Of a DNA stretch of 64,000 nt, positions 2,087-62,672 are shown in pieces (positions within the stretch are counted from its first letter, which is position 1; each line of letters starts with the position of its first letter). Location: positions 64,001-128,000 of the forward strand of contig CAWKHF010000007.1 in assembly GCA_963849325.1 (NCBI GenBank), written 5' to 3'. Position numbers and translations under genes: made by a program. The notes under the pieces are model-generated. The model made no database searches, was not told where the DNA came from, and saw only the letters and a program-made list of their open reading frames with translations. The DNA is from an uncultured Planctomycetota bacterium (GTDB taxonomy: Bacteria; Planctomycetota; Planctomycetia; Gemmatales; Gemmataceae).

Positions 2087-3085
2087 ATGGAAGCAGTCCA
2101 CATCATCGGCGCCGGCGGCATCGGCTGTGCCGTCGGCCATGCTCTTTGCACGATCGGCGTTCCCGTCACTTTCGTGGATGCCGATGTCGCCAAGATCGAT
2201 TGGGGCCGGCGACACGGCGTCGTCGTGGACGGTTTGTCGCCACGGCCCGCCGCCTTCGTCCCTTTCGCCGACTGGCAGCCGTCCGCCGACGCCGTCATCC
2301 TTCTCTGCACGAAATGCTACGACAACGCCGCCGTGCTCGAACGAGTTCCGGCGTCCGTTCGGCTTGTGCCGATCCAGAACGGTTTCGATCCGCTGCTGCA
2401 CTCTCGCGGCCACGCCATTGAGGGGATCGCCTCGTTCGTCTCCGAATGTCTGCCGCAGCGGACGCACACGCGCCTCACGCGCGCCGGCCGCCTGCATCTG
2501 GGCCATCGGTCCTCGGCGAGCGACGATCGATCGGAGTTCCCGGATTGCCTTGGGGTGCTGACCGAGGGCCGGCAGCCGATCGCGGGCGGACGCATCCGTG
2601 TCGAGACGGTCGAGGACATTCTGCCGTACAAGTACACGAAGTTGATGTACAACGCGGCCATCAGTCCGCTGGCCTCCGCCGCCGGCCTGGACAACGGTGA
2701 ATTGCTGCGCCGGCCGCGGTTGCGCGGCCTGTTCTTCGATCTACTCCGCGAGAACCATGCCATCTTGCGGCGTGCCGGCATCTGTCTGGGCAAGGTCGGT
2801 CCCCTGCATCCGTCCACCGTGGCCGCCATCCTGCGCCGGCCGCTGGTGGCGCACGCCCTGGCCTGGGCGTTCTACCCCAGTCTGCGGCGCACCTACTGCT
2901 CAATGTCCGGCGACCTGCCGACCGGCCGCACTGAGATCGATTATTACAATGGACATCTTCTCGAACTGGCCGGCGATGGCCCCTGTCCGCTCAACCGCCG
3001 CGTCTACGCTCTGGTCCAGCGCATGCAGCGCAAGCGCATCGCTCCGCATCCCGACGTCCTGGACGAACTGCCGCTCGCGGCCTAG
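2087..3085 (+). CDS. Ketopantoate reductase (ApbA/PanE) family protein
   Basis: Rossmann IIGAGGIG, LCTKCYD, IQNG, KLMYNAAI, SMSGDL...RTEIDYYNG motifs. Confidence 0.85.
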   Translation: MEAVHIIGAGGIGCAVGHALCTIGVPVTFVDADVAKIDWGRRHGVVVDGLSPRPAAFVPFADWQPSADAVILLCTKCYDNAAVLERVPASVRLVPIQNGFDPLLHSRGHAIEGIASFVSECLPQRTHTRLTRAGRLHLGHRSSASDDRSEFPDCLGVLTEGRQPIAGGRIRVETVEDILPYKYTKLMYNAAISPLASAAGLDNGELLRRPRLRGLFFDLLRENHAILRRAGICLGKVGPLHPSTVAAILRRPLVAHALAWAFYPSLRRTYCSMSGDLPTGRTEIDYYNGHLLELAGDGPCPLNRRVYALVQRMQRKRIAPHPDVLDELPLAA

Positions 3086-3147
3086 CGTTCCGCCGCCAGC
3101 GACTATAATGACGGTGTGAACCCTCGGTCTTCCAGGAGAACGCTGTC

Positions 3148-3510
3148 ATGTCCGCGTCCGGGTCGGAACCACTGACCCCGTTGTCCCTCCGCAAAGATGG
3201 TCCCGATCACCTGCTCATCGAGTGGAGCGACGGGCATCACAGCGTCTACACCTGGCAGCACCTGCGGGCCAATTGCCCCTGCGCCGGCTGCCGCGACGAG
3301 CGCGAGAAACCGCCCGATCCTTTCCGCATTCTCAAGCCCGGCGAGCTGGCGCCGCTGGCCCCGCTGCGCATGCCGCCGGTCGGTCGTTACGCCTACAAGA
3401 TCGTCTGGAGCGACGGTCACGATTCCGGCATCTACACCCTGGAACACCTGCGTTCCCTTTGTCAGTGTCCTCAATGCACCGTCCGAGCCGCGAGCGTTAG
3501 CGAGCGGTGA
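3148..3510 (+). CDS. DUF971 (GBBH-like N-terminal) protein
   Basis: [36 protein letters not shown] motifs. Confidence 0.9.
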
Positions 3511-3541
3511 AGCGAGCGCTCGCTAACGCTCGCGGCTCGGA
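3482..3541. repeat. REP-like palindrome, family A (CCGAGCCGCGAGCGTTAGCGAGCG)
   Basis: Perfect arms; overlaps the last codons and stop of the DUF971 gene. Confidence 0.9.
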
Positions 3542-3562
3542 TGGACTACTCGGAGAACTCCC

Positions 3563-4387
3563 ATGCAGCCTCACGCTGGCCCGTCGCAGAAGATCGCCCT
3601 GCCGAACATTCAGAACGTCGTGGCCGTGGCCAGCGGCAAAGGCGGCGTCGGCAAATCGACCGTGGCCGCCAATCTCGCCCTGGCCCTGGCACCGCATCAG
3701 CCCCCGCGTCGGACTGATGGACGCCGACATTTACGGACCCAGCGTGCCGATCATGATGGGCGTCCCCGGCGTCGTCGATCAGGCGACCACGCCGTTTCCG
3801 CTGGAGCGCTACGGCCTGAAACTCATGTCGATGGGCTTTCTGGTGCCGCCGTCGCAGGCGGTCATCTGGCGCGGCCCGATGGTGCATCGCGCCATCACGC
3901 AGTTTCTGACGGACATCAACTGGGGCGCCCTCGATTACCTGGTCATCGATCTGCCGCCGGGCACCGGCGACGCCCAGCTCGACGCTGACGCAGACGGCGC
4001 CGCTGTCCGGGGCGGTGATCGTGACGACGCCGCAGGACGTGGCCCTCATCGACGCGCGCAAGGGGCTGGAGATGTTCCGGCAAGTGCGCGTGCCGGTGCT
4101 GGGCATCGTCGAGAACATGAGCTATTTCGAGGGCGAGGACGGCAAGCGTGTCAACCTGTTCGGCCACGGCGGCGGCCGAAAGCTGGCGTCGGAGGCCGGC
4201 GTGCCGCTGCTGGGCGAAATCCCCATCGACCCGCGCGTGGCCGAGTGCGGCGACCAGGGTCGAGCCGATCGTTCACAAGTATCCCGATTCCGGCGTGGCG
4301 AAGGCGTATCAGGCGCTGGCGGCGACCGTGATCGAACAATTGCGTCGAACCGATAAAGGGCCGGAGCTACCCGAAGTGCAGCTGTAA
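3563..4387 (+). CDS. apbC: Mrp/NBP35 (ApbC) Fe-S cluster carrier ATPase, frameshifted in this sequence
   Basis: [50 protein letters not shown] spread over three frames (shifts near 3695, 3980, 4260). Confidence 0.9.
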
Positions 4388-4393
4388 AACGCA

Positions 4394-4439
4394 CCGAGCC
4401 TACAACGCTCCCGTCGTTAGGGGATCGCTGCAGGCTCGG
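4394..4439. terminator. Imperfect hairpin between convergent genes (possible bidirectional terminator or degenerate REP)
   Basis: CCGAGCCTACAACGCTCCC...GGGATCGCTGCAGGCTCGG. Confidence 0.45.
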
Positions 4440-4461
4440 CTCTTGAATGGGAAGGGTCAGG

Positions 4462-4620
4462 TCAATGAGAATGGTGTGGCCGCACCGGCGCGTACCGGCT
4501 TGCCTTGACGGGAGGAGATGACGATTTCCGAGCGGGCCTGACCGAGCGCGATGACCCTCCGAGGATCGGCCCGATGAAACAAGTCCACAAAGCAATGAAA
4601 GCCGCCCAGCGGAATTGCAT
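4462..4620 (-). CDS. Small 52-aa protein with hydrophobic N-terminus (absent from ORF track)
   Basis: MQFRWAAFIALWTCFIGPILGGSSRSVRPARKSSSPPVKASRYAPVRPHHSH-stop; AGGT upstream; directly downstream of a sigma-54 promoter. Confidence 0.55.
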   Translation of the reverse strand: MQFRWAAFIALWTCFIGPILGGSSRSVRPARKSSSPPVKASRYAPVRPHHSH

Positions 4621-4674
4621 GCGACACCTGGACGTACACTCCGGCGCGGCGAGGGGCGAATACCGAAGTCGTTT

Positions 4675-4690
4675 CGCAACTAACGTGCCG
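4675..4690 (-). promoter_or_regulatory. Sigma-54 (-24/-12) promoter
   Basis: Minus strand CGGCACGTTAGTTGCG = GG-N10-GC, matches TGGCACG-N4-TTGC. Confidence 0.7.
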
Positions 4691-4864
4691 CCCCCGAAGA
4701 GGACGAGCGTGTTGATCTCTTAACTACCTGGAAAATAAAGACCTATCGCACAGTCGAAGGGAAAGGACGCATCGACGAATCCGGGTTGGATGTATCCGGG
4801 ATTTGGCGCGGGAAACAGAGGGAGTGAAGGAAGGGAAACCATTGCTCGCTCGGCTTGGTCCTCC

Positions 4865-6326
4865 TCAACTCTCCGTCTCGTCGCCGCCGGTGATGGTGCG
4901 ATCGATGTGAATGCCGAGGTCGCGGATCTTGGTCCGCAGACTGCCGCGCGTGATGCCGAGAATCTTCGCCGCTTGCAGTTGGTTGCCGCCGGTGTGCCGC
5001 AGGACACGCATCAACAGCAAACGCTCCAGTCGCCGCACCGTCTCGGCGTACAGTTCCTCCGTGCCGGCCTGAAGCCGCGTCTCGATGAACTGCTCCAATC
5101 CCGCATCCCGCGGCGCCGCATCGTCCGTACCGCCGACGTCCGTTTCCTTCGCGACGGCCCCGGTGACACTCGTTGGTAGGAAGTCCGGCAACAGCAAAGG
5201 ACCGGCCGCCTTCAAGAGCGCTTGCTTGAGTACACTTTGCAGCTCGCGCACGTTGCCCGGCCACGGATAGCGTCGCAGCAGCTCCAGCGCCTCGGGCGAG
5301 ACGCCTTGCACGTCCTTGCCCAGCTCGCGGTTGAAGCGGCGCAGGTAGTGACCGATTAGCAGGCATAGATCGTCGCCGCGCATCCGCAGCGGCGGTAGGT
5401 GGATCGTGAACACACTCAGGCGGTAATACAAATCCTGCCGGAATTTCCCGGCGGCGACGGAGGACTCCAGATTAGCGTTCGTCGCCGCCAACATGCGCAC
5501 GTCGGTGCGGATCGTCTCGTTGCCGCCGAGGCGCTCGAACGTCTGTTCCTGCAAAACGCGCAGCAACTTGCTCTGCGTCAGCGAACTCATGGTGCCGACT
5601 TCATCGAGGAACAGCGTGCCGCCGGAACACTGCTCGAACTTGCCGATGCGGCGGCGGTCGGCGCCGGTGAAGGCGCCCTTCTCGTGGCCAAACAGCTCGC
5701 TCTCCAGCAGGTTCTCCGGGATGGCGGCGCAGTTGATGGGCAGAAACGGTCCATTCGCCCGCCGGCTGTGCTGATACAGAGCGCGAGCGACCAGTTCCTT
5801 GCCGGTGCCACTCTCGCCGGTAATCAGCACGGTCACGTCCTGGGCGGCAACGCGGCCGATGGCCTTGTACACCTCCTGCATGGCCGGGCAGGCGCCGACG
5901 ATGGCGTCGGCGCGCTCGTCCACTTCGTCGTCGGCGGCCAGCACCGCCGGCACGTGCATGAGGCGACCGATCGCCAAGGCGCGCTCGACGACTTGCCGCA
6001 GAGTGCTCAGCTCCAGCGGTTTGAGGAGATACTCGTAGGCGCCGAGCTTCATTGCCTCGATGGCGGTATCGGTCGTGCTCTTGCCGGTGATGAAGATGAC
6101 GAGGCTGCGTGCGTCCAGCTCGCGCAGCCGGCGCAGCATCTCCAGGCCGGACAGGTCGGGCAAATGCACGTCGAGGACGATGACGTCGGGCCGCTCCTGT
6201 CGGGCGATGTCCAAACCCTGCGCCGCGGTCTCGGCCGTAAGGACGGTGACGCTCGGGTCGCGGAAAGCCTTGCGAAAGGCCAGCAGGATGGAAGGCTCGT
6301 CATCGACGACCAGCAACGTCGCCCAT
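4865..6326 (-). CDS. Sigma-54-dependent response regulator (NtrC/AtoC type)
   Basis: Receiver (LVVDDE, VLDVHLPD), AAA+ with GESGTGKE and GAFTGA, Fis-type HTH; ATG at 6326 is one base out of frame (extra G in ATGGGCG). Confidence 0.95.
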
Positions 6327-6347
6327 GACTCTTCTCTCAAAGAAGCC

Positions 6348-6502
6348 ATCACCACGGAAAACACGGAAAAAGACCAGCACGAGTAGATCATGACAGGCGG
6401 ATGAAGCAACCCAAAGTGTAGCCGCGATATTTGTGGATCGCTTTCTCTCCTCTTGTTCTTTCTTTGTCTTTTTTCCGTGTCTTCCGTGTTTTCCGTGGTG
6501 AT
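6348..6502. repeat. Inverted repeat built from tandem 9-mers (CACGGAA core)
   Basis: ATCACCACGGAAAACACGGAAAAAGAC ... TTTTCCGTGTCTTCCGTGTTTTCCGTGGTGAT between kinase and regulator genes. Confidence 0.85.
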
Positions 6503-6510
6503 CGTTTTTT

Positions 6511-7977
6511 TCAAGACGGCAGGGTGAAGGTGAACACGGCGCCGCCTTCGGGGTCGTTCTCGCCGTGGATGCTGCCGCCGTTCGCTTCGAGCAGCCGCTG
6601 ACAGATCGACAGCCCCAGTCCCAGGCCGGTCTCCTTGCCGCTGACGAACGGCTCGAACAGCCGAGCGAGGATCGGCGCGGCGATGCCCGGCCCGCTGTCG
6701 TGCAGACACACCACCACTTGCGGCGGCTCGTCCATCGATCGCACGTCCAGGCGCAGGTCGCCACCATGCGGCATGGCATCCAGGGCGTTGAGCAGCAGGT
6801 TGACCAGCACCTGCTGGATCTGTTCGCCATCGATGAGCAACTCGACCGGATCGGGCGGCAGTTCCGTCTTGACGCGGACGTTCTGCCGGCGAACCCGTCC
6901 CTCGACCAGGGTAAGAGCGCGGCGAACGACCGCCAGCAGGTCGGTACGGCGGCGCTCGGCGCCGGGCGGACGAGCGAAGTCGAGGAAGGTCTGAATGCAC
7001 GCCTCCATGCGGCGAATCTCGTGCTCGATGATGGTCAGGTCTTCCGCGGGCAGGCCGCTCGGCGGTTCGCCTTCCAGGCCAGTCTGCACCAGCATCTTGA
7101 CCGACGTGAGCGGATTGCGCAGCTCGTGGGCCACGCCGGCGGCAACCTGGCCGACCGCCGCCAACTGTTCGGCGCGCAGCACCTCGCGCTCGCGCTGGTG
7201 CAGACGGCGAAAGACCTCCTCGATCTGCTCGCCGATGGCCTGCATCTGGCGATTCAGCGCCGACAGGTTGCCGTCGCCCTCCAGGGTGACCGGACGCAGC
7301 TCGCTGTTGAGCCGGCCGGCCGCGTCGCGGATGCGCACGCTCAACTGGTAGATCGACTGGTGCATCCGCCGCGCCACCGCGTAGCCGAGCAGCAGGCCGG
7401 CCAACGGCGCCCCGATGCCGACGGCCAACAGACCTCCCGTCAGACGATCAACGATGAGGCGATTGGTTTGGTCCGACTCGCTCACCTGCCGCGTGTTGTA
7501 CTCCAGCAGGCGCGAGCAGCGCTGCAACAAATCCTCGTCCAGCCGCAGCGCCAGTCCTCGGTCGAACTCCTCCAGCTCCTCGCGGGAGGTATGGCGCGGG
7601 CGTTTGCCCCACGCCTCCCGGTAGCGCGCCCAGCTCTCGGCCACTTGCCGGACGTGTGCCTTCTCCTCGTCGCTGTTGGCGTAGTCGGCGACTTTTTTCA
7701 ACTGGAGTTCGGCCCGATCGTGATGCTTGGTCAACTCCGCCGTCAGCTGTTCGGGCCGAGAGTGATCGCCGCGCAGCAGGGGAACGAGTTCATCCAGTGT
7801 CGTCTCCAACTCCTTGTCGGCGACGGTGCTGGCCGCGTTCTCCGTCAGGACGTGCGAGACCTGGCGATAGAGGTGGTTGAGGTAGATGGCCCCCAGAGTG
7901 CAGGCGGCGACGAGCAGCAGACTGCCGGCTGCCGCCGCCCAACGGACGACCGTTTCCATGCGGGTAGTAATGACCAC
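6511..7977 (-). CDS. Membrane sensor histidine kinase
   Basis: Two TM segments around a helical periplasmic domain; H-box AHELRNPL, N-box NLLLNALDA, DSGPGI, GLGLGL. Confidence 0.95.
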   Translation of the reverse strand: MVITTRMETVVRWAAAAGSLLLVAACTLGAIYLNHLYRQVSHVLTENAASTVADKELETTLDELVPLLRGDHSRPEQLTAELTKHHDRAELQLKKVADYANSDEEKAHVRQVAESWARYREAWGKRPRHTSREELEEFDRGLALRLDEDLLQRCSRLLEYNTRQVSESDQTNRLIVDRLTGGLLAVGIGAPLAGLLLGYAVARRMHQSIYQLSVRIRDAAGRLNSELRPVTLEGDGNLSALNRQMQAIGEQIEEVFRRLHQREREVLRAEQLAAVGQVAAGVAHELRNPLTSVKMLVQTGLEGEPPSGLPAEDLTIIEHEIRRMEACIQTFLDFARPPGAERRRTDLLAVVRRALTLVEGRVRRQNVRVKTELPPDPVELLIDGEQIQQVLVNLLLNALDAMPHGGDLRLDVRSMDEPPQVVVCLHDSGPGIAAPILARLFEPFVSGKETGLGLGLSICQRLLEANGGSIHGENDPEGGAVFTFTLPS

Positions 7978-51650: not shown

Positions 51651-51777
51651 ACCCTGCTCGCCAGGCATACCCCATCTCTTTTCCCTTTCCTCTCCCCGTA
51701 CCGACCGATATGATCGCTGGCAGATACCCCCCCTGCCTTGGGGCCTTCCCTCGCCTCCTTCCTTGCGAGAATGCACC

Positions 51778-53813
51778 ATGAACGTCTCGTCTCTTTCTTC
51801 CTTGTGCTTGCGTATACTGCTGGGTGCCGCCGTCATGCTGGCGTGGGCCGGCCACGGACAGGCGCAGAAACCGGCCCCGCTGCCGGTCAACCCGCAGGCG
51901 CCGGTGCTGAAGCCGGCCGTGCCGCTGGGCATGCAGCGCGGCACCACACTGGAGCTAAACCTTACCGGGACCAATCTCGCCGAGCCGACCGGCCTGTGGA
52001 CCAGCTTTCCCGCCAAGGTCGCCATCCCCACCGAGGGCAACAACGGCAAGGACAATACGAAACTGCTCGTCCGTCTCGACGTACCCAAGGACGCCCCGGT
52101 CGGCTTCCATGCGATCCGGCTGGCGACGCGGCGCGGCATGTCGAACCTGCGCCTGTTCTGCATCGACGATCTGCCGCAGGTGCTGGAGACGAGCACGAAC
52201 CACGCGCCGGCCACGGCCCAGGCCGTGCCGGTGCCGTGCGTCGTCGCGGCCAAGGCCGACGCCGAGACGACCGATTACTTCAAGTTCCGCGTCACCGCCG
52301 GTCAGCGCGTCAGCTTCGAGGTCCTGGGCCGGCGGCTGGGCAGCCTGTTCGATCCGCAGTTGCAACTCCTCGACGCCGCCACCGGACGCGAATTGCCGGG
52401 CGCCTACAGCAACGATGCGCCGGGCTTGCAGACCGACGCCCGCATGACTTACACCTTCAAGAATGCCGGCGAGTATCTCGTGGCCGTGCGCGACGTCAGC
52501 TATCGCGGCGGCGACGACTTCCATTACCGCCTGCGCATCGGCGATTTTCCCTGCGCCACCACAACGCTGCCGCTGGCCGCCAAGCGCGGCAGCAAGGTGT
52601 CCGTGCGCTTCGCTGGTCCCACCGTGGACGGCGTTGCTCCCGTCGAGGTGACGGTGCCGGCCGACCCGGCGGTCGAATCACTGGTACTGGCGCCGCGCGG
52701 GGCCAACGGCTTGCACGGCTGGCCGGTCAGCCTGGCGGTCTCCGACCTGGACGAGACGCTGGAGCAGGAGCCGAACAACGAACCGGCGAAGGCCAACCGT
52801 ATTGCCGGTGCCCGGTGCCGTCACCGCTCGCTTCGAGCAGAAGGGCGACATCGATTCCTTCGTCTTCGCACTGAAGAAGGGCGTGCGTTACACCATCGAG
52901 GTACAGACGCACGAACTCGGTTCGCCGACCGAGGTGTACATGACCCTGCGCGATGCCAAGGGGGCACAGCTGCAAGCGAGCAATCCGACGACGGCGCCGC
53001 GGCTGGACTTCACGCCGCCGGCCGACGGCGATTACACGCTGCAAGTGGAACACCTGCACCTGTGGGGCGGGCCGGACGAGGTCTACCGCGTCCGCGTCGC
53101 GCCCTCCGAACCGGGCTTCGATCTGACCGTGGCGCTGGACCGCTACGATGTCGGCCAGGGCGGCAAGCTGTCGATCCCCGTCCTGGCGCCGCGGCGCGAC
53201 TTCGGCGGTCCCATCGAAATCAGCGTCCTGGGACCGAAGGGCATCAGCGGTCATCTTGCCGTCGCCGCCGGCAAGGCGCCGCCGGCCAATCAGCCGATCG
53301 GCACGTTGACCGTCAACGTGGCCGACGACGTGCCGCTGGGTGCGTATGCCTTCCGCATCCAGGGCAAGGCGACAATCGACGGCAAGGTGGTGACGAGGTT
53401 GGCCAGCGCTCGCACGGCCGTCAGCCAGGGGTTGGCCAACCTGCCGCTGCCGCCGAGGGAGATGCTGACCACGATAGGCCTGGCCGTCACGCCGAAACCG
53501 CCGTTCACCCTGGCCGCGAAGCTCGACGCCCCGTCGTACATGCCCGGCAAGCCGGCGACGCTGACGGTCACGGCCACGCGCTCGGCCGGCTTCACGGCCG
53601 AGATCGTCCTGAGCGCCGCCGGCCTTCCGCCCGGCGTCACGGCGGCGTCTGAAAAACATCCCGGCCAATCAGAACGAGGTCAAGGTGCAGCTGACTCTGA
53701 CGCCGCAGACCAAGGTCGGCCAAACCTCCCTCGTCCTCACGGGCAAAGCCAATCACCAGGGCCGCGATGTGACGGCTACTGCGCCGCCGGTCGCCCTCGT
53801 GGTCAAGAAATAA
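51778..53813 (+). CDS. Secreted PPC (pre-peptidase C-terminal)-domain protein (frameshifts near 52805 and 53650)
   Basis: Signal peptide, PLGMQRG, DYFKF, RLGS.FDP, EQEPNN, repeated beta domains; ends VALVVKK-stop. Confidence 0.82.
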
Positions 53814-53827
53814 AAACGCCATCCATC

Positions 53828-54253
53828 CTACGGCCCTTGTCTGTATTTCCGGGCGATTGCTAATATCACATGGATGATGATGAGGAGGAGAGTGCCGCCC
53901 GCGAACGACCACAGACCGGCCTGTATCGTCCTACGGGTTCCGGTGAGAAAGCCAGCGATAAAACATGCGGCCCCGATGGCCTGTAGTAGGCAGGCAATGT
54001 AGAATCCGAATTCAGAGGCAAGCGGCTTCTGTTTATGTCTCCATTTGATTACTAAGATCATGGAGCTGAGAATCATGAGAAGAACGGCGCCGGTGAATAA
54101 GGGAACGCACAACCATACCCCAACAATAACGAGCTGTCTAAGGCCAGCGAAAAAGCCAATGATCTCACACAGCAATCCTAGAAGTCCCAGTATTGCTGCA
54201 ACCCGGACGCAAAAATCGATAGAAAGCAGCTTGCCTGACATTCGGACAATCAC
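53828..54253 (-). CDS. Small 4-TM membrane protein, possible immunity protein
   Basis: Low-GC ORF, four hydrophobic segments, two similar halves. Confidence 0.6.
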   Translation of the reverse strand: MIVRMSGKLLSIDFCVRVAAILGLLGLLCEIIGFFAGLRQLVIVGVWLCVPLFTGAVLLMILSSMILVIKWRHKQKPLASEFGFYIACLLQAIGAACFIAGFLTGTRRTIQAGLWSFAGGTLLLIIIHVILAIARKYRQGP

Positions 54254-54283
54254 TGCCTATGGCTGTGACGCAGCCCAATATCT

Positions 54284-54627
54284 CTATGTTCGCTCATCCT
54301 GGTGTAGTTCACCATCACTGGTATCAGGAGAGGGTGCATCATATAGCTCGTATCGCACGCCTTCTACTTCACCGGAGGCGATTGGCTTCGCACTGGTTGG
54401 TTGATACTCTGCGAGGATCTGCGAAACAGTGCGGTTATTCATTCTCTCGTAGCGCCTTCAATTCCATACCATCCAACATAGTTCCGTAGGATGGTACGAA
54501 GTTGCTTACTCAATACTGGCGGCAATGCCTGAATGGCTTTCGTCAAAGAGATGGACACTTCCTGAAGGCTTGAGCCTGAAATCAATCTTCCCCCATGATC
54601 TGTCACGGCATTTCTCCGCAATAACAC
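54284..54627 (-). CDS. Putative immunity gene(s) behind the deaminase cassette: 62-aa ORF (54439-54627) ATGA-coupled to 52-aa ORF (54284-54442)
   Basis: GTG starts 1 nt after the deaminase stop; second ORF MNNRTVSQILAEYQP...; may be one frameshifted gene. Confidence 0.4.
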
Positions 54628-54748
54628 GTTATGGCTTCACGAGAAGCACTCCATTCCTCCATGCCCATTGGCTTCCAGCGCTATCAATATACCATATATC
54701 CATTTGGAATTGCTGAGATGCCCACTGCATAAGACTTTGGCAATCTCT

Positions 54749-56280
54749 CTGTACTTTCCGTGATTTTCTCATAGTTCGCCATAAGCGACAACTTCGGGAG
54801 ATAATTCTTGGTGAGGTCGAGCAACATGGCAGCGACGGGCGGGTGGACGATAACCGGCTCCCCGGACACGATGAGGGGTGACTACCGTCCCTCGTCTCGC
54901 CAAGGAGCCGGCCATGCCATTGTCGCAACTGCCCACCTCGTTGTCCGCCTGGCTGTCCGACATCACCGCTGCCCTCGATCGCCGCTCCGCCCCGCGACTG
55001 CTCCTGCTGCTGGTCGGGGCCCTGTTCGCCAAAGGACGCCGTACCGTCATCTCCTGGTTCCACGCCGCCGGCATCACCACCGACTTCCGGCCCGCCTACA
55101 ACGCCTTGGGGGCTGCTGGCCGCCGCGTCGATGCCCTGAGCTACCGCCTGCTTGGCATCGCCCTCAAGCCGCTGATGCGTCGCATCCCCGGCGACCGTCT
55201 GCTGTTCGCCATCGACGATACGCCGACGGCGCGCTACGGACCCTGCGTGCAGGGCGCCGGCATCCACCACAACCCCAGCCCCGGCCCCGCCGGCGAAAAG
55301 TTCGTCTACGGTCACGTCTGGGTCAGCCTCGCCTGGTTGGCCCATCACCCGGCCTGGCACACGCTGGCCCTGCCGTTGCGTGCCCTGTTGTACGTCCGCG
55401 CCAAGGACGTGCCGGCGTTGGCCGAGAACTACCCCTGGCCGTTCCGCACCAAGCTGGAACTGGCTGCGGAGTTGGTCCGCTGGTTGACGGTCTGGGTGGG
55501 CGGTCTGGGCCGGACCTTGTGGCTGGCGGTCGATGGGGCCTACGCCAAGCGACCGTTTTTGCAGCCGGTGATGGCGTTGGGAGTGGTGGTCGTCAGCCGG
55601 CTGCGCAAGGACGCTCACCTGATGACCCTGCCACCGACCCGACGTCGGCACGGACAGCGTGGACCGTTGCCGACCTACGGCAAGGAGCGGATCGACCTGG
55701 CCAAGCGTGCCGGACAGCAGCGGGGCTGGCGGCGGCTGGAGTGCGTGCAGTACGGAGAGCGGGTGGTCAAGCAGATCAAGACGTTCCAGGCGACCTGGCG
55801 GCCGGCGGGCGGCTGCATCTGCGTGGTGCTCGTGCGTGAGGACGACGGCTGGCTGGCCTACTTCTGCACGGACCCGGAGGCGACGGCGACGCAGGTGCTG
55901 GAAGCGATGGCCGACCGAGGTGCGATCGAGCAGATGTTCAAGGATGTCAAGGAGGTCTGGGGTGCCGGCCAGCAGCAGGTGCGGAACGTGTACGCCAGCA
56001 TCGGAGCCTGGGCGGTGAACCTGGTGATGTACAGCGTGGTGGAGGCGTGGGCTTGGACGCATGAGGAGGAGGAGTTGGTGGACCGCCGTCGGTCGCCGTG
56101 GGACACCAAGGATCGTCGGCCGTCGCACGCGGACAAGCGGAAGGCGTTGCAACGGCTGATCCTCCGAGAAGAAATCCGCGCGGCTGTCGAGGGTCGGCCC
56201 GAGTCGGAAGGGTTTCGGAACGTGGCTATCCGCCTGCTCGATTTAGCCGCCTGACTGTAAGACTCTCACGGAAAGTACAG
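54749..56280 (+). mobile_element. Complete IS701-like insertion sequence (1532 bp)
   Basis: 15-bp perfect terminal IR CTGTACTTTCCGTGA (54749-54763 / 56266-56280); 7-bp flanking direct repeat AATCTCT (54742-54748, 56281-56287). Confidence 0.92.
54914..56254 (+). CDS. DDE transposase (IS701-like)
   Basis: AIDDTP, VDGAYA, SRLRKDA, RGAIEQMFKDVK motifs; AAGGAG SD. Confidence 0.93.
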   Translation: MPLSQLPTSLSAWLSDITAALDRRSAPRLLLLLVGALFAKGRRTVISWFHAAGITTDFRPAYNALGAAGRRVDALSYRLLGIALKPLMRRIPGDRLLFAIDDTPTARYGPCVQGAGIHHNPSPGPAGEKFVYGHVWVSLAWLAHHPAWHTLALPLRALLYVRAKDVPALAENYPWPFRTKLELAAELVRWLTVWVGGLGRTLWLAVDGAYAKRPFLQPVMALGVVVVSRLRKDAHLMTLPPTRRRHGQRGPLPTYGKERIDLAKRAGQQRGWRRLECVQYGERVVKQIKTFQATWRPAGGCICVVLVREDDGWLAYFCTDPEATATQVLEAMADRGAIEQMFKDVKEVWGAGQQQVRNVYASIGAWAVNLVMYSVVEAWAWTHEEEELVDRRRSPWDTKDRRPSHADKRKALQRLILREEIRAAVEGRPESEGFRNVAIRLLDLAA

Positions 56281-56751
56281 AATCTCTGCAAGCTGGGAGG
56301 ATTCCATCGAAAGTCAGCCTCATTCCCGGCCCCAACTTCCCTGCTTCGGCCAACTCGGCGATAACTTTTCCTTCAGTATGAGTGTACCAGGCTTGTTCAG
56401 GAAATGTCAACTTGGTTCCCTTGGGGAAGGTAACTTCGGCACCACTTATCGCAGTTCCGCCTGCGATTCTCCCACCTCTTGGACCTGTAAATTCCCAATC
56501 AGCCACATGTGGAGTATTCGACGCTCGTCCGAACCAGCCTCCCAGCCCGGCGAAGGCCATCGTCAGTACTGCGGGCGTGAAGTCGCCAATGGTCTTCGCC
56601 GTTCCCTCACTCGCTCCCAGGCCACTTGCAGCCGAATAACCCAGATACGCAATCACCGAGGAGTTGGACTGTCCCGAACCCCAGTCGGCCACTCCCGCGA
56701 TGATCTGATCTACCCCCACCGACATCAAGCCCACACCCGACACTACCGCAT

Positions 56752-57198
56752 TTATGTGGGCGAACTCGCAAAATACATGTCCTCTTCAAACGTGAACGAG
56801 AAGCACCAGCCACCGTCCTTGGCAATCACATATAGCGATTGAGGTTCTGTCAACAATCTTGAGAATACATCAAGAAGTACGCCAAAAGTCATCTCCAAAG
56901 CGACTGAAGTTGTATTGTCTCCAACTACCACACATCTGTCGCTCGAATTAAGCCCAGCGGCCAATTCAAATTGTTCTAGAAATTCTCGGATTTCGCTTTC
57001 CTTATCGGCTATCGGAACGCGAGGGAACCTTGCTGGGCGGAATTGTGTACTCGGAAGTTGTTCCCAGCAGATTCCACTCGCACGCACAGGGAAACGCTGA
57101 CTGAGGAGATTGAACCACGGTTTATCGCTTTCATGGACAGTGATCAGTCCCGCAGCGACTTCACTTGCGAGGCATTCCAGCCAATCTTGCTGGTTCAT
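56752..57198 (-). CDS. Orphan immunity protein, CdiI-like
   Basis: 148 aa, AGGAG SD; FP...I.W, VGDN, PQSLYVI..DGGWCFSFTFEEDMYF pattern resembling CDI immunity proteins. Confidence 0.6.
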   Translation of the reverse strand: MNQQDWLECLASEVAAGLITVHESDKPWFNLLSQRFPVRASGICWEQLPSTQFRPARFPRVPIADKESEIREFLEQFELAAGLNSSDRCVVVGDNTTSVALEMTFGVLLDVFSRLLTEPQSLYVIAKDGGWCFSFTFEEDMYFASSPT

Positions 57199-57260
57199 GA
57201 TGCAACTCTCCTAGGGCTATTGGCCACCAAACAGTTGTCGAAGGACTGCGAGGTAGAAGG

Positions 57261-57500
57261 CGAAAAATAGACAAAAAATGCATAAGATACTTTTAGAGTC
57301 TGTCCCAAAAGCCCCTCTCCCCCGAATCGGGGGAGAGGGGCTTTTGGGACAGACTCTTAATGCATTAGAGGCACTAACAAAAAGGCGAACGGCCGGCGTG
57401 AGCCGGCTGGTTTTGGCCCCCACCAGCCGGCTCACGCCGGCCGTTCGCCCAAAAAGTTAGTGGCTCTTAAAACCATCTTATGCGTTTTCTGCTTTTTACA
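57261..57500. repeat. Nested composite palindrome (outer AT-rich IR enclosing two REP-like hairpins)
   Basis: Outer AAAATGCATAAGAT.../...ATCTTATGCGTTTT; inner perfect hairpins 57293-57359 and 57384-57449. Confidence 0.85.
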
Positions 57501-57521
57501 CCTTTTCTCCTTTCATTGGGA

Positions 57522-57977
57522 CTATTCTTTTTGCATTCGCTTAGTTAGCTCGCCAAGGATTTCTGCGACAAAGTTTGAGTTGGTCGCTAGGCATGTCCTT
57601 TCCCCGGTGTCCGGCTTAGTGAAGAACACGCTTCTTATAGGCACTCTCCGCACAGAATCAATGAGGTCTTGCGTGACATTCGCATCCGGAAGTCTGCCCA
57701 ATAGGTGAAACGCCGTACAGCAGACTGACGCTTCTTCGTGCGCGAGAAAGTGCGGCAAATGTGGACCGAAAATCTGCGGGGAATGAACCATCCCTAGCTC
57801 AAGAGCATATACGAGGTGGTACTTATCGTAATTAGGCAAGTCCGATAACATGCGCCCAAGTGATTCTTCGGAAACCCTTGTCGCTGGATCGTTGAGCAAG
57901 GGCTCCATGTAAGCAGCTAGGGCCGAGTTGGCAAGGGCGACAAACGTATCGTACTCGAAAACAGGTGTTGTGGCCAT
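57522..57977 (-). CDS. Putative cognate immunity protein (151 aa)
   Basis: ATG overlaps the toxin stop (TAATG); low GC; helical/HEAT-like sequence. Confidence 0.7.
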   Translation of the reverse strand: MATTPVFEYDTFVALANSALAAYMEPLLNDPATRVSEESLGRMLSDLPNYDKYHLVYALELGMVHSPQIFGPHLPHFLAHEEASVCCTAFHLLGRLPDANVTQDLIDSVRRVPIRSVFFTKPDTGERTCLATNSNFVAEILGELTKRMQKE

Positions 57978-60900
57978 TAGAATCCCCATCGGATAACTTT
58001 TCCGGTCGAGTCGATTACCACAGCTCCATACGCTTGAACGAAGCCACGACCTGATGCCTGCCAGGCCAGATCGTGAAAACGGGCAACGAACACTCGCCCA
58101 TTTACAACGAGAGCAGGCCAAGGTCCTGCGCCAAGACCTGGAGCAACTATGGCCTGACTTCCCACAATTGCACCGCGAGCACCTAGCGAAGGTGGCGGCG
58201 ACGTTGCGGTCCCCGGTCCCCTCGCCAGTCCTGGGACGTTCGGTGCCGCCGGGGATTGAGGCCCTCTTCCAAACCAATTCCCCAGCCCCGCGAACGCCAT
58301 CGCCAGCACTGCGGGCGTGAAGTCGCCGATGGTCTGCGCCGTACTCTCACTCGCGCCCAGCCCGCTCGCAGCCGAATAGCCCAGGTATTGGTATAACGAA
58401 GGGTTGGGCTGCGATGAACCCCAGTTGGCCACCCCCGCAATTATCTGATCCACCCCCACCGACATCAAGCCCACGCCCAGCGGCACCACCACGCCGCCAC
58501 CGTTGCCCAGCGTCATCACCGCCCCGCCAATCACGTCGGCGATGCCCACGCCGATCTGCAACACGCTGCCGCCATTTGCCAGCAACCATTGCACCCCCGC
58601 ATCACGCAGGAAGTCCGCTTTCAATTGGTCCCACGTCGTCGTACCCGACGCGCCCGGCCACGACAAGTCCTCTTCCGTGTCGATCGATGGCGACGGCTTG
58701 GCGTCACCCCACGGCGATACCGCACCCGACTTCCGATCCGTCGTCGCACCCCAACTCGCCGACCACAAGTACGTCTTGCGACCACCATCCCCCGACGAAG
58801 AATCACCCTTCGCCCAAGAACGATACACACCGATCTGCCAGCTATTGTTCGTGTTGGTGCTCGCGGGCGACACGAACACCCGACTCGTCCAGTTCTCGCT
58901 GCCGGCCCGCTCATCGATGTCGCGCAGGCTCAACTGACGCTGACCGCCCACTGATGTGCCGGCGATGTTCTTGTGATACGACTGGAAACCGTCGGCATAA
59001 TTACGAATGGTAAAGCCGTCGGCCGTGTCCAGGTTGAACACCTTCTGCCGCGACCATTCCGTCTTCTGCTGGTCGCCCTTGCGGTTGAAACTGAAAGTGT
59101 AATTGTCCGGCGTGCCCTTCTCGACCGTGGTTTCGCTGGTGGAGTTGCTCATGTCCAACTTGTGCCGCCACGACGACTCGACTGCCGGATTGCCGTTGTC
59201 GTACTCGTCGCCTTCGTCGTCCTCCGCATCAGCGGCCGGATGGTACGACTGGTCCTTCTCGTGGAACTCGCTGCTGTTGCTGTCGCTGTGATCGATAGAG
59301 AACTGCCGGCCCGTCTCGCTCCAGCCCGAGTCAGTGCTCTTCTGGTTGACGGTCAGTGTATCGTCTACCGAGGACGATGCCTGGGCTTTGTATCTCCAGT
59401 CGCCGGTGCGGCCCTGACCGTCATCGAGCTTGCCGTTGGCGGCCATCGAGCTATTGCCGCTGCTCTGCTGCGTGAAGCCGGTGGTGCGCGTCGCTTCCGC
59501 ATTACCGTCGCTCAACGTGATGGTCACCGTGTCGGTGCTGCTGACCTTGCCGCTGCCGCCGGCGTTGATCTGGGCATGCAAGACATCGTTATCGCGGTCG
59601 ATCTTGCGATTGATTCCATAGTCGGCGGCGGCGCTGTTGTCGGTCCCCATCGTGATGGTGCCGCTGGCTTGATCGCCGCACAACGTCAAGTCCAGGCCCA
59701 GCGAGTCGCCGCTGTGGCTGTGGTTGTGATTGGTATCGTTGACTTGGCCGGTGCCGTCGGACAGCGGCACGCTGCCCTTGACGGTGTTGACTACGTCGGT
59801 ATCGCTGGCGTCGCTGCCACTGGCGGTCAGCGTGCCGTTGGCCGTGCCCGCGTCGTCGTAGGTCAGGTCGGCTGTGGCGTTGCCGCTGGAACTGCTGCTG
59901 GCCGTGGACAGCGACGTTTGCGTGGGCTGGTTGGTCCCCGCTTGCTTCGACCACACAAAGCCGCCGCCGGACTGGTTGCTCTGCGCCTGGTCGTAGCTGC
60001 TGCCGTCGGTCAGCTGGCCGTCGCTATTGACATTGCCCTTGGCCTTGGACGTGCCCGAGGTACTCGCCGTGTTGCTGGCGAAGACGATGGCGCTCCCTTG
60101 CAGCGAGCCATCGGCAGCGGTGAAGTCGGCCTTGTTGAAGCCCGAGGCGGCGCTCTTGCTCTGGTAGCTGCCGCTGTCGTCGATGCTGTTGACCTTGGCC
60201 ACCTGGTCGGACGCGCCGGAGACGACGCCGTCGCTGTGACTACTGCTGTTGGCCTGGGATGAGTACGTGCCCACCGTCTGACCGGCGGGGGCACCACTGC
60301 TGGAGTCGGCACCGACGGCGATGGTGGAGCCGCCGCTGTCGCTCTGCGACATCTTGGCGTCACTGCTGAGCTGCGAACGGTAGGTCTGCTGGTCCTGGGT
60401 GGCCGAACCGTCGGCGTAGGTCTGGTCCAACGTCTGATCGTCGCTGTAGCTGCCGCTGCTGTCGCTCTGGTAGCGGGAGGTGCCGTCGCTGGCGGCATCG
60501 CCGCCGCGGTGGTAGGCATCGGTGACGGCGTAATGGTTGGTCTGGTTGCCGCTATCGTGGTCCTCGCGGCCCTGCGTGCCCGACTGCGACAAGCCGCCGG
60601 CATCGGTTAGGTTGGTGTCCTGGTTACCGTCGTCTTCATCGAAGCTCTGGTTGTCGATGTCCCAACGGAACTGATCGCGGTCGCCACTGGTGGGATCGCT
60701 GGCGCTAGTGCTGTTCTGGAAGTAATAGCGTGAGGCGACCTGATCGTGGTAATCGTTGTGGGCGTTGATGGCCTGCTGGGTGAGGATGCCGAAGGAGCCG
60801 TAGGTGTTCGTGATCGTGCTGTTACTGTTGAGGAAACCACTGGCGGAAGAGAGTTGTAGGTAATGTGTGCCGTCGGCCGGCGCGGCGGACGGGTCGGGAG

Positions 60901-62479
60901 CGGGGCTGTTATCGTCGGTGGGGAAGTTGGCGGCGTTGTCGCTTTGGATCAACTCGCTGTTGTAAGTGCTTCCTTGCCGGGAGGTCGAGACCGCCGTGCC
61001 CGAGCCGTCGGACTCGCTTTCCTCGGACGTGCCATCATCCGGCGTGCTATCAGCATTCGAGGAGGCCGCGTCGGTCCAGGTGGACGACTGGTTGGACCAG
61101 TCGGTGCGACTGGAGTGGTTGACGAACTGATAGCGGCCGCCGTTGTCGGCGGTGTAGCTGCCGGAGGCCTCGAAGGTGATCGACCCGTTCCAGCTGGTGT
61201 GGTCCCACGTCATGTAGCCGAAGCCATAAGTCGGCACGTAGCCGCCGAGCGGCATGCCTTGCATGGCGATGCTGGGATCGATGGGCGTGCTGAAGGGCGT
61301 CACCTCGTTCTCCACATCGAAGTTCCAGCCATAATCGGTGTGCAAGGAGGCGGTGGCGGTGGTAGTTCCGGTCAGCACCCAGGAGGCGCCGGCCGCGGCC
61401 TGATCGCCGGTAGCCGGCGCGATGGCGGCGTCGAGGGTGACGTCGAGGGAGAAGGAACCATCCTTGCTGCCGCCGCTGTAAGTGTAGTGCTGCACATAAT
61501 GGCTGGAGTCGATCTGGATGGCAGGCGTGGCCGTGGCACTGGTGGTGCTATCGTCCGAGGTGGCGGCACTGGTATCGTCGGCCGTGGTATCGGTGGCGTC
61601 GGTGGTGTCTGCCGTCAGGTCCGCCGGCAGGTCGGGGGCGGTGGTGATGTCGGGTGGCGTGTAGTCGGAGTTATCCACGGCGGGGCCGGCGGAGGTATCC
61701 GGTGCATCGCTGGTGTCGGTGCTGCTGCTATCGGGCCCCCAATCATCGTCCGTGCTGGAGTCATCCGGCGGGGTGGTGTCATCGCTGCTGACATCCGTCG
61801 GCAGGATCAGCCCCGGTTGCGGCGACGTGGCGTCGGCGGTGGAGTCGGTCGGGGCGGGATCATTGTTGGGGCTGGCCGATAGGGAGCTGGTCCACCACGA
61901 ACCGTTGGCAAGCAGCGTCTGAGGATCGAGAGGAGCGGCACTGTCATCGGCGGGGGTGGTGCTGGTGTCGCCCGCGGATGGTCCTATGGCTTGCGCCGCG
62001 AGTGCGCCGCTGGCCGGGTCGATCGGGGACGCCAGGTTGGGATCATCGCCCGCGTTATCGGCAGAGGAATCGGACGGCTGTGCGAGTGTATCGGCAGCGG
62101 TCGCGGTCGCGGTCGCTGTCGCCGGCATGGCAGCCATGTACTGGGCGTAAGCGGTGTAGGACGAGAAGGGCAGGTCCGGGGTGGAGGATGCGGCGGCGTC
62201 GGCATTCGGAGTCCCATCCGTGCCGGTGTTATCGGCAGCGGGGGAAGTCGCGGTCGCGGCCGTTGGCGTGGCGGCGTAGAGGTCCGCATAAGTCGTGGTG
62301 CCGGCTGAGGAAGTCGGGTCCGGGGGCAGCCATGCGGCCGACAGCAAGACGCGCTCCTCCAAGCTTTCCAGGCGGAGGTCCACGTACCGAGGTTTGCTCG
62401 ACCGTGGTCTCCGGCTGCGGAGGTGGGAGGTGGAAATATGAGGCAGAAGATGGCTTTTCAGCCAGGAGAAAAAGGTCAT
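57977..62479 (-). CDS. Large LEPR-XLL-type exoprotein, putative polymorphic toxin (1500 aa)
   Basis: N-terminal RRPR...LRLESLEERVLLS motif, D/T/S/A-rich linker, S/D/N/G-rich central region, Gly-rich hydrophobic segment, WFGR, 95-aa C-terminal domain. Confidence 0.85.
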   Translation of the reverse strand: MTFFSWLKSHLLPHISTSHLRSRRPRSSKPRYVDLRLESLEERVLLSAAWLPPDPTSSAGTTTYADLYAATPTAATATSPAADNTGTDGTPNADAAASSTPDLPFSSYTAYAQYMAAMPATATATATAADTLAQPSDSSADNAGDDPNLASPIDPASGALAAQAIGPSAGDTSTTPADDSAAPLDPQTLLANGSWWTSSLSASPNNDPAPTDSTADATSPQPGLILPTDVSSDDTTPPDDSSTDDDWGPDSSSTDTSDAPDTSAGPAVDNSDYTPPDITTAPDLPADLTADTTDATDTTADDTSAATSDDSTTSATATPAIQIDSSHYVQHYTYSGGSKDGSFSLDVTLDAAIAPATGDQAAAGASWVLTGTTTATASLHTDYGWNFDVENEVTPFSTPIDPSIAMQGMPLGGYVPTYGFGYMTWDHTSWNGSITFEASGSYTADNGGRYQFVNHSSRTDWSNQSSTWTDAASSNADSTPDDGTSEESESDGSGTAVSTSRQGSTYNSELIQSDNAANFPTDDNSPAPDPSAAPADGTHYLQLSSASGFLNSNSTITNTYGSFGILTQQAINAHNDYHDQVASRYYFQNSTSASDPTSGDRDQFRWDIDNQSFDEDDGNQDTNLTDAGGLSQSGTQGREDHDSGNQTNHYAVTDAYHRGGDAASDGTSRYQSDSSGSYSDDQTLDQTYADGSATQDQQTYRSQLSSDAKMSQSDSGGSTIAVGADSSSGAPAGQTVGTYSSQANSSSHSDGVVSGASDQVAKVNSIDDSGSYQSKSAASGFNKADFTAADGSLQGSAIVFASNTASTSGTSKAKGNVNSDGQLTDGSSYDQAQSNQSGGGFVWSKQAGTNQPTQTSLSTASSSSSGNATADLTYDDAGTANGTLTASGSDASDTDVVNTVKGSVPLSDGTGQVNDTNHNHSHSGDSLGLDLTLCGDQASGTITMGTDNSAAADYGINRKIDRDNDVLHAQINAGGSGKVSSTDTVTITLSDGNAEATRTTGFTQQSSGNSSMAANGKLDDGQGRTGDWRYKAQASSSVDDTLTVNQKSTDSGWSETGRQFSIDHSDSNSSEFHEKDQSYHPAADAEDDEGDEYDNGNPAVESSWRHKLDMSNSTSETTVEKGTPDNYTFSFNRKGDQQKTEWSRQKVFNLDTADGFTIRNYADGFQSYHKNIAGTSVGGQRQLSLRDIDERAGSENWTSRVFVSPASTNTNNSWQIGVYRSWAKGDSSSGDGGRKTYLWSASWGATTDRKSGAVSPWGDAKPSPSIDTEEDLSWPGASGTTTWDQLKADFLRDAGVQWLLANGGSVLQIGVGIADVIGGAVMTLGNGGGVVVPLGVGLMSVGVDQIIAGVANWGSSQPNPSLYQYLGYSAASGLGASESTAQTIGDFTPAVLAMAFAGLGNWFGRGPQSPAAPNVPGLARGPGTATSPPPSLGARGAIVGSQAIVAPGLGAGPWPALVVNGRVFVARFHDLAWQASGRGFVQAYGAVVIDSTGKVIRWGF

Positions 62480-62672
62480 GGGCGTCCCCGCTCGTCCCAA
62501 GGAAACCTAAAGAAACCGTAATGAAAGTCTTTGGGGAAGAGTCATGTCGAAACCGCATTTGTCAAGGAAGTGAATACGTTTTTAATCTTTAGCCGTTGGT
62601 ATGGTAATTGCGGTGAAACATCGAAAGGGCGCCGGACGTTCGCGCCTTTGTAGGTTCCCTAAGGAGGAATTT

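Follow-up and report, generated by a model that had tools for sequence, protein, structure and literature searches.

Polymorphic toxin systems in the sense of Zhang et al. (2012, Biol Direct 7:18) feature a conserved carrier with hypervariable C-termini, an immunity gene that lies directly downstream and co-varies with the toxin domain, orphan cassettes that bear pre-toxin sequence, and toxin domains that recur on unrelated scaffolds. Planctomycetes are listed in the phyletic tables of toxin and immunity domains of that paper, in which export by a signal peptide and the type II secretion system (T2SS) is the default class; its main text, as distinct from its supplements, names none of Gemmata, Isosphaera, Pirellula, Rhodopirellula, Singulisphaera and Planctomyces. 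The present analysis concerns a 64,000-nucleotide stretch of DNA from an uncultured Gemmataceae planctomycete (assembly GCA_963849325.1, contig CAWKHF010000007.1, positions 64,001 to 128,000), called the window below, and a minus-strand locus in it at which a gene for a protein of 1500 residues (the main protein, P0001) is followed by several small genes. The features listed above are found here: a conserved carrier with hypervariable C-termini, a downstream gene (ORF2; ORF, open reading frame) that co-varies with the C-terminal domain CT1 and is predicted to bind it, an orphan cassette that opens with pre-toxin sequence, and domains used on unrelated scaffolds, CT1 being found on carriers with an RHS core and the deaminase CT2 behind PT-HINT. 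The sequence comparisons point, with a probability of about 0.85, to a polymorphic toxin-immunity locus that is built, in this Gemmataceae planctomycete, on an undescribed carrier. This reading is preferred because the locus combines a conserved carrier, interchangeable C-termini, cognate downstream genes, orphan cassettes, and domains that are shared with Rhs and HINT scaffolds.

PT-HINT toxins (PF07591) resemble this locus in having a long carrier, a conserved region before the hypervariable toxin, a downstream immunity gene and orphan cassettes. The window protein differs from them in lacking HINT, its recombination handle being a hydrophobic helical domain instead, and its leader, stalk and hydrophobic domain are absent from the curated libraries searched. 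The original prediction had proposed a new class. The stalk and the pre-toxin domain are indeed in no Pfam, NCBIfam or PDB entry; however, because PT-HINT is used by relatives (8 of 42) and one of them (P0040, identical in sequence to an ORF of genome G013) has already been named 'polymorphic toxin-type HINT domain-containing protein' by a source, the locus is a new scaffold within a known kind and not a new kind. The logic is known and the modules are partly known; what is undescribed is the scaffold of leader, stalk and pre-toxin domain, together with a new toxin/immunity pair. Open-access text contained no description of this carrier family under LEPR-XLL (incidental mentions only), planctomycete polymorphic toxins or Gemmataceae toxin/immunity, and no experimental study of interbacterial toxin delivery in planctomycetes was found there. 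The locus thus offers a concrete, uninterrupted planctomycete candidate with a clear test pair, CT1/ORF2, and its leader, which is unlike a Sec signal, makes the planctomycete export of giant LExR-leader proteins approachable. Additionally, it adds a small predicted toxin domain of unrecognised fold that is also used by Rhs systems, as well as members of a little-studied deaminase toxin family with a candidate inhibitor.

Stalk, pre-toxin domain and variable C-termini

The original prediction described a 1500-residue ORF with an export-associated motif, without RHS/YD or haemagglutinin repeats, and with a Gly-rich hydrophobic segment and a short C-terminal domain. Each of these elements was recovered on the minus strand, and the motif is LRLESLEERVLLS at residues 43-55. 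With the whole protein as query, Pfam gave no family at E<=1, so that RHS/YD and haemagglutinin repeats are absent; a comparison with PDB sequences returned nothing. The stalk is composed to 59.7% of Ser, Thr, Asp, Ala and Gly combined, has no Pfam, NCBIfam or PDB sequence match, and is encoded once in the genome, as determined by own-genome search. The pre-toxin domain occurs twice in the same genome, both times within the window locus. Its AlphaFold2 (AF2) model is all-helical and weak, with a predicted local distance difference test (pLDDT) score of 64.6, and no Pfam family, PT-TG (PF14449) included, was found for the domain in 42 members at E<=0.01.

Relatives were collected by an exhaustive profile-free search of 1.84 billion proteins with residues 1250-1412, in which 42 cluster representatives reached E<=0.001; P0038, a repeat protein, was rejected as spurious, so that 41 remain. 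A word-based search with residues 1150-1506 against proteins of 828-2638 amino acids (aa) returned the main protein only. Nine of the 13 relatives of at least 900 residues align co-linearly to the stalk by BLASTP over 597-970 residues at 25-45% identity, and the remaining four have in common with it the pre-toxin domain alone, or nothing that BLASTP detects. In seven of the nine stalk-sharing relatives the similarity halts at residue 1391-1406 of the main protein, where WFGR is located; in P0022 and P0005 the match extends beyond WFGR, to 1425 and 1453. One metagenomic member (P0035) carries the hydrophobic pre-toxin domain in two tandem copies.

The region after the pre-toxin domain is highly variable. 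A trimmed domain profile (alignment A3) located the domain in 50 sequences, namely the 41 representatives and nine genome ORFs including the window orphan, of which five with a truncated last domain match and six with fewer than 50 residues after the domain were set aside. The other 39 tails of at least 50 aa, taken from the end of HINT where it is present, fall into 30 C-terminal groups by single-linkage BLASTP at E<=1e-3. In the long members the pre-toxin domain lies 57-249 residues from the C-terminus, and HExxH-like motifs are visible in many of the tails. Among the 42 members, eight have a PT-HINT that Pfam recognises, and one has an XOO_2897-like deaminase. Where relatives carry PT-HINT it stands between the pre-toxin domain and the toxin; the HINT-less form is commoner, since the HINT end motif is absent from 36 of the 45 members that have a complete pre-toxin domain.

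The genes that follow the relatives are variable as well. In G013 the toxin (HINT with a C-terminus of ~110 aa) is ATGA-coupled to an Imm11 gene (30.9 bits; cut-off 22.1), and downstream of it lie, in this order, a second Imm11 gene (24.2 bits), an orphan piece of HINT (64 bits for PT-HINT) that ends in another C-terminus, and a low-GC ORF. The toxin of G003 is followed by two DUF4259 genes (49.9 and 24.3 bits; cut-off 22.8), with a HINT remnant between them, and a HEAT-repeat gene, and the toxin of G027 has next to it a coupled ORF of 109 aa and an IS3-type transposase. Two further genomes, G550 (L030) and G592 (L031, 8700-12000), feature arrays in which truncated ORFs composed of pre-toxin domain and C-terminus, one of them with an HExxH-type tail, alternate with paralogous ORFs of ~178-213 aa. 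The latter (MNSDQREFLRRL... type) have no Pfam match and probably represent a new immunity family. Orphan cassettes outside the window are thus found in G003, G013, G550 and G592. The check suggested with the original prediction, that homologs share the stalk, vary after WFGR and are followed by variable small genes, was run and came out as anticipated.

CT1 and its candidate partner ORF2

The last 67 residues of CT1 are predicted to fold confidently into a four-stranded sheet with one helix (AF2 pLDDT 94.1 and predicted template modelling score 0.82, from nine sequences). This domain features a conserved R-F-H motif, the His of which is invariant in the alignment. CT1 belongs to no Pfam family, and among PDB sequences it matches only designed propeller repeats. 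Fold searches gave a best E of 0.79 with Foldseek and a best Z of 3.6 with VIA-align (wide), and the ESM Atlas gave no usable match. As the original prediction stated, the small ORF behind CT1 is TAATG-coupled; the stop of the main gene and the start of ORF2, which encodes 151 aa, overlap at 57979-57975.

Relatives of ORF2 comprise three database proteins and 11 metagenome loci. At nine of these 11 loci the ORF2 relative is preceded, at a distance of ~80 nt or less and on the same strand, by the end of a sequence related to the last ~60 residues of CT1 (37-60% identity); since L043 and L044 are near-identical, the nine loci represent eight distinct cases. The other two, L047 and L049, have the ORF2 relative without CT1, which is an orphan-immunity pattern. 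In two of the CT1 carriers an RHS repeat-associated core domain lies directly before CT1 (TIGR03696, 45.9 and 53.2 bits vs 32.5), and one of these two also has an RHS repeat; the other carriers are short or unrelated. This co-occurrence makes ORF2 a candidate cognate partner of CT1, and the last ~60 residues of CT1 look like a small mobile toxin domain, toxicity being predicted.

The predicted complex of CT1 with ORF2 has an ipSAE of 0.74 (median of 3 runs), and the best of 3 controls reached 0.02. Of 80 solved complexes, 58 reach 0.74, as do 2 of 110 mismatched pairs; these counts are rough in that custom alignments were used. The runs share at least 88% of their contacts and the pLDDT of the partner is at least 90. 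The interface is centred on CT1 residues 34-36, which are the R-F-H motif, and the contacts with the least error link them to conserved positions of ORF2 at about 52-56 and 83-91. The modelling supports binding of CT1 to ORF2. A cytoplasmic enzymatic target of CT1 is suggested because its soluble partner covers the invariant His.

The stalk and CT1 also bear on another explanation, in which the protein serves as an adhesin or surface fibre, its C-terminus is no toxin but is varied by cassette replacement for antigenic or receptor variation, as in pilin silent loci, and ORF2 is a chaperone or assembly factor. A protein of this kind would agree with the long Ser/Thr/Asp-rich stalk, with the silent cassette that has a handle in common with the main gene, and with a CT1 that lacks a known toxin fold. 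However, relatives have deaminases among their C-termini and PT-HINT in front of them, Imm11 is among the downstream genes, and in other organisms CT1 stands after an Rhs core domain, which is the position of Rhs toxin cargo. An adhesin is therefore regarded as very improbable.

Orphan cassette and surrounding features

Downstream of ORF2, the original prediction described an orphan immunity-like ORF, a second copy of the pre-C-terminal segment with a different C-terminus, and further small low-GC ORFs. The first of these is ORF3, which encodes 148 aa and has no toxin of its own upstream. It has no Pfam match, and a single partial relative turned up when 267 genomes were searched; its language-model neighbours, CdiI_ImmP, DUF2947 and DUF6756, are of low recognition value and serve as a lead only. 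The second copy stands as a direct repeat of ~215 nt with 84% identity (56524-56738 vs 58264-58478), but its C-terminus is split by an IS701-family insertion sequence (IS) that had been overlooked, and the cassette is degenerate through this insertion and a frameshift. The low GC content stands too, at 0.46-0.57 over 53.8-58.2 kb (IS excluded) vs 0.62-0.70 on both flanks; however, two of the small ORFs, of 62 and 52 aa, are halves of one gene.

The orphan ORF (166 aa, 56243-56743) begins nine nt past ORF3 and opens with the pre-toxin copy. The boundaries of the direct repeat are sharp: it starts at GVGLMSVG and ends right after WFGR, with unrelated sequence beyond. The copy of 72-73 residues is likely a recombination handle. 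Past this copy the orphan frame encodes CT2, a predicted nucleic-acid deaminase, enters the IS for 12 codons and then reaches a stop, and the real continuation consists of 37 codons at 54629-54742. The 5' piece of CT2 scores 15 bits with PF14427 (E 0.022), which is under the cut-off of 25, and the 3' piece alone has no match. The 5' piece is 75% identical to residues 113-193 of P0046 and the 3' piece is identical to residues 193-229 at 19 of 37 positions (E 6e-15); because the two pieces align in this way, the IS is located between the two cysteines of the CxxC. Reading the two pieces one after the other reveals both motifs, H-x-E and P-x-C-x-x-C (HTE; PACRD/C across the IS). Three intact CT2 relatives with 76%, 69% and 64% identity have PF14427 in precomputed annotation, one of them together with PT-HINT, and the two that were rescanned (76% and 69%; P0046 and P0047) pass the PF14427 cut-off with 29.4 and 25.1 bits.

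The transposase of the IS scores 289.8 bits with NF049999 (cut-off 170). The element features inverted ends of 28 nt (54748-54775 and 56254-56281) and a 5-bp target duplication (54743-54747 and 56282-56286), and its ends are fixed by two further copies in the genome, 83% and 78% identical to it, whose matches span its positions 1-1532. In G001, a genome of the same genus, a single uninterrupted ORF of 121 aa (L060, 344-706) matches both the 62-aa ORF (39% identity) and the 52-aa ORF (62%), which makes these two one broken gene. The G001 ORF also follows a deaminase fragment, so the position of the gene is kept. The break, near 54443-54465, may be a real frameshift or an error of sequencing. 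Taken together, these features suggest that the CT2 cassette was displaced and is decaying, inactivated by IS701 insertion and frameshift. An order-wide search with P0046 found a deaminase in G001 alone, and its matches were otherwise mostly PT-HINT ends.

Decay of the cassette raises the possibility that the whole locus is a relic, in which the product of the main gene has lost export or function and the gene is kept only through an addictive toxin-immunity pair. The IS and frameshift in the orphan cassette, the invasion of the island by the IS and REP-like repeats, and the missing PT-HINT module of relatives all lend themselves to this explanation. The 4.5-kb main frame is nevertheless unbroken while other genes of the genome show frame breaks, its coupling to ORF2 is intact, and the 36 of 45 members without the HINT end motif share this absence, and a relic is considered distinctly unlikely. 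A toxin-antitoxin addiction module was likewise considered as a candidate and was rejected in view of the 1400-aa carrier.

The remaining features of the region concern the spacer, the end of the island and its flanks. A palindrome-rich spacer of 320 nt separates ORF2 from ORF3. The palindrome with 28-nt arms (57384-57449) is a genome-wide repeat resembling repetitive extragenic palindromic (REP) elements, with 91 matches when both strands of the palindromes are counted, and the palindrome with 39-nt arms (57287-57365) occurs at just one other locus. The 141-aa membrane ORF (53828-54253) has no Pfam family above the cut-off; a 97-aa membrane ORF of L031 occupies a similar position. On the plus strand, a secreted-protein gene at 51763-53863 seems to switch frame near 52800-52830, where ORFs of 629 and 353 aa overlap. 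The break appears to be a frameshift or an assembly error, as each of the overlapping ORFs looks genuine in one half. The flanks encode a fumarylacetoacetase, a major facilitator superfamily (MFS) transporter, an esterase and a trypsin-like protease.

PT-HINT ends are very common in the order. A query with a HINT end as its first 70 residues is matched by 120 of the 267 genomes, often at several places in one genome, and the ORFs concerned can reach 5000 aa or more. In the genome that contains the window (G000), contig 12 carries a second polymorphic toxin locus at 241-247 kb, where a stretch of 6 kb contains three or four PT-HINT matches, all in the same orientation; own-genome searches with the window stalk or pre-toxin queries did not recover it.

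Table 1. Features of the locus in window coordinates, listed in the direction of the main gene.
Feature	Position	Strand	Basis or remark
Main toxin gene, uninterrupted	57977-62500	minus	1507 aa from TTG 62500; 1500 aa from ATG 62479 = P0001
N-terminal leader	62327-62500	minus	aromatic/Trp-basic start and a basic linker rich in Ser, followed by LRLESLEERVLLS (LExR / LEPR-XLL-like motif)
Conserved stalk, ~970 aa	58610-61516	minus	co-linear BLASTP matches in relatives
Gly-rich hydrophobic helical pre-toxin domain, ~107 aa, WFGR at its end	58265-58591	minus	domain profile
CT1, 95 aa: Pro/Gly-rich linker and small alpha/beta domain	57980-58264; domain (last 67 aa) 57980-58180	minus	
ORF2, 151 aa, candidate cognate immunity protein of CT1	57522-57977	minus	TAATG coupling
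Two intergenic palindromes between ORF2 and ORF3	57287-57365; 57384-57449		39-nt arms; perfect 28-nt arms
ORF3, 148 aa, orphan immunity-like gene	56752-57198	minus	ORF list
Orphan copy of the final 72-73 pre-toxin residues	56525-56743	minus	82% protein and 84% DNA identity to main gene
CT2 5' part, Pput_2613-like deaminase with H-T-E motif	56282-56524	minus	broken after ..LPACRD
IS701-family insertion sequence, 1534 bp	54748-56281	plus	transposase 54878-56254
CT2 3' part, 37 codons, the first being the second Cys of CxxC	54629-54742	minus	similarity to P0046
Candidate deaminase immunity gene, split into 62-aa and 52-aa ORFs	54284-54627	minus	both match one G001 ORF
141-aa predicted membrane protein, four hydrophobic stretches, low GC	53828-54253	minus	marks low-GC island end

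Export, proposed mechanism and comparison with known systems

There are some discrepancies regarding the assignment of the leader to the LEPR-XLL type, as the original prediction had it. The LEPR-XLL model NF012209 describes a ~24-residue N-terminal domain of LEPRxLL type with a curated cut-off of 17 bits. Residues 1-57 of the main protein score 17.9 bits and the six-frame genome search gave 19.9 bits, which is the best score of the genome, but the whole protein scores 9.7 bits. The motif spells LEERVLL and not LEPRxLL, and the assignment is borderline. The leaders of five other N-terminally complete members (P0015, P0022, P0040, P0034 and G655) are built alike, on a common plan of a Trp/aromatic-basic start, a basic linker and LxLExLExR. 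In locus L008 of G003 the leader (MKLLAWLKRY...) at 2256-2537 is out of frame with the 1572-aa main ORF at 2384-7099, which suggests, for the 5' end, a frameshift or an error of the metagenome-assembled genome (MAG). Hydropathy analysis of the main protein found no hydrophobic signal-peptide core, the top 19-residue Kyte-Doolittle mean (KD19) in the first 100 aa being 0.49. KD19 values of at least 1.6 are confined to residues 1306-1324 and 1329-1348, both inside the pre-toxin domain. The 14 kb upstream of the main gene encode ordinary enzymes and an MFS-type transporter. We infer export via the LEPR-XLL route and an interbacterial target.

The question of the target brings in a further explanation, that of a freely secreted polymorphic toxin that acts on eukaryotic grazers or distant microbes, with immunity serving only against self-intoxication before export. 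No contact-dependent apparatus is encoded nearby and the sheath gene of a type VI secretion system (T6SS) was not found, which would be expected of such a toxin, and in Zhang et al. (2012) signal-peptide-type toxins are regarded as possibly diffusible. On the other side are the orphan immunity genes without a toxin (ORF3; L047 and L049) and the multi-immunity arrays, both of which are expected if like neighbours attack each other, and the ~1000-aa stalk, which suggests presentation at the cell surface. None of these three is decisive, and a diffusible toxin is held to be unlikely.

For a polymorphic toxin that acts between bacteria, the following mechanism is proposed. The protein would be exported through its LExR-type leader and not by a Sec signal peptide, and the stalk would display the C-terminus at or beyond the cell surface. 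By analogy with type VI effectors that bear transmembrane helices, the two hydrophobic helices of the pre-toxin domain might insert into a membrane and help the C-terminal domain into the neighbouring cell. Toxin release would be brought about by PT-HINT cutting in relatives, and in the window protein the Pro/Gly-rich linker may be the cleavage site. CT1 would then be an enzyme that acts in the target cytoplasm using its invariant His, and ORF2 would shield the producer and its kin by covering this His site. New C-termini would arrive by homologous recombination via the shared 215-nt segment. A more far-reaching proposal is that of a planctomycete-specific delivery class, in which a coreless LExR leader feeds a ~1000-aa fibre into an undescribed export route, the two-helix module is a translocon, and CT1 is a new enzymatic fold shared with Rhs. 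In such a class the LExR leader may be cleavable or recognised, and the two-helix module may carry interchangeable toxins into neighbours. This proposal is tentative and somewhat doubtful.

Several points weigh against the interpretation as a polymorphic toxin locus or against parts of it. The family is rare: within the order, 15 of 267 genomes, the own one included, have the pre-toxin domain (8 of 145 if only high-quality genomes are taken), and a sample of 400 other genomes from across the phylum, with 10 candidates scored in each, yielded none. A narrower alignment (A4) found one locus, in a Gemmataceae MAG. The leader passes the LEPR-XLL cut-off only if it is scanned apart from the full protein, and the leader of P0040 is below this cut-off. 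No transporter gene for the toxin protein was found among the 14 kb upstream, TssC was not found in this genome, which is 84.7% complete, and two identical ShlB-type genes are located on other contigs. The role in membrane insertion leans on hydropathy and the weak pre-toxin model (pLDDT 64.6), and the window protein lacks PT-HINT, the domain that would account for toxin release. CT1 has no recognisable fold or catalytic signature, and its activity is therefore a guess. ORF2 matches no immunity family in Pfam or NCBIfam, and the score of its complex with CT1 is a model confidence.

The locus can be compared with several described systems. The orphan CT2 has the motifs of the Pput_2613-like deaminase toxins (PF14427; Iyer et al. 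2011, NAR 39:9473) when its pieces are joined, and intact CT2 relatives pass the family cut-off; the window copy differs in being split by IS701, with its 5' piece at 15 vs 25 bits. Neisseria MafB/MafI is similar in featuring an exported toxin with a conserved N-terminal part, a variable C-terminus, immunity genes and alternative C-terminal cassettes. The window protein, however, has neither the DUF1020/MafB N-terminal domain nor a classical signal peptide, and its carrier is far longer. In type VI effectors such as Tse6 and the prePAAR effectors, transmembrane helices probably enter the membrane of the target cell and let the toxin through. As in these effectors, Gly-rich hydrophobic helices adjoin the toxin domain, which in the window protein would likewise act in the cytoplasm, but the helices of the type VI effectors are N-terminal and need a T6SS with chaperones, whereas those of the window protein lie just before the toxin and TssC was not found, so that the resemblance is a functional analogy only.

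The CdiA/CdiI systems of type V secretion share with the locus a full-length toxin, a coupled immunity gene, orphan modules of C-terminus and immunity gene with pre-toxin sequence, and a filamentous carrier that presents the C-terminus. Unlike CdiA, the window protein has no two-partner secretion (TPS) domain, filamentous haemagglutinin (FHA) repeats or VENN motif, and no CdiB/ShlB gene lies nearby. Rhs toxins differ from the window protein in their YD/RHS repeat and core domain, both of which it lacks, but displaced C-terminal cassettes are found in both, and CT1 is carried together with its ORF2 partner on Rhs carriers as well, after the core domain.

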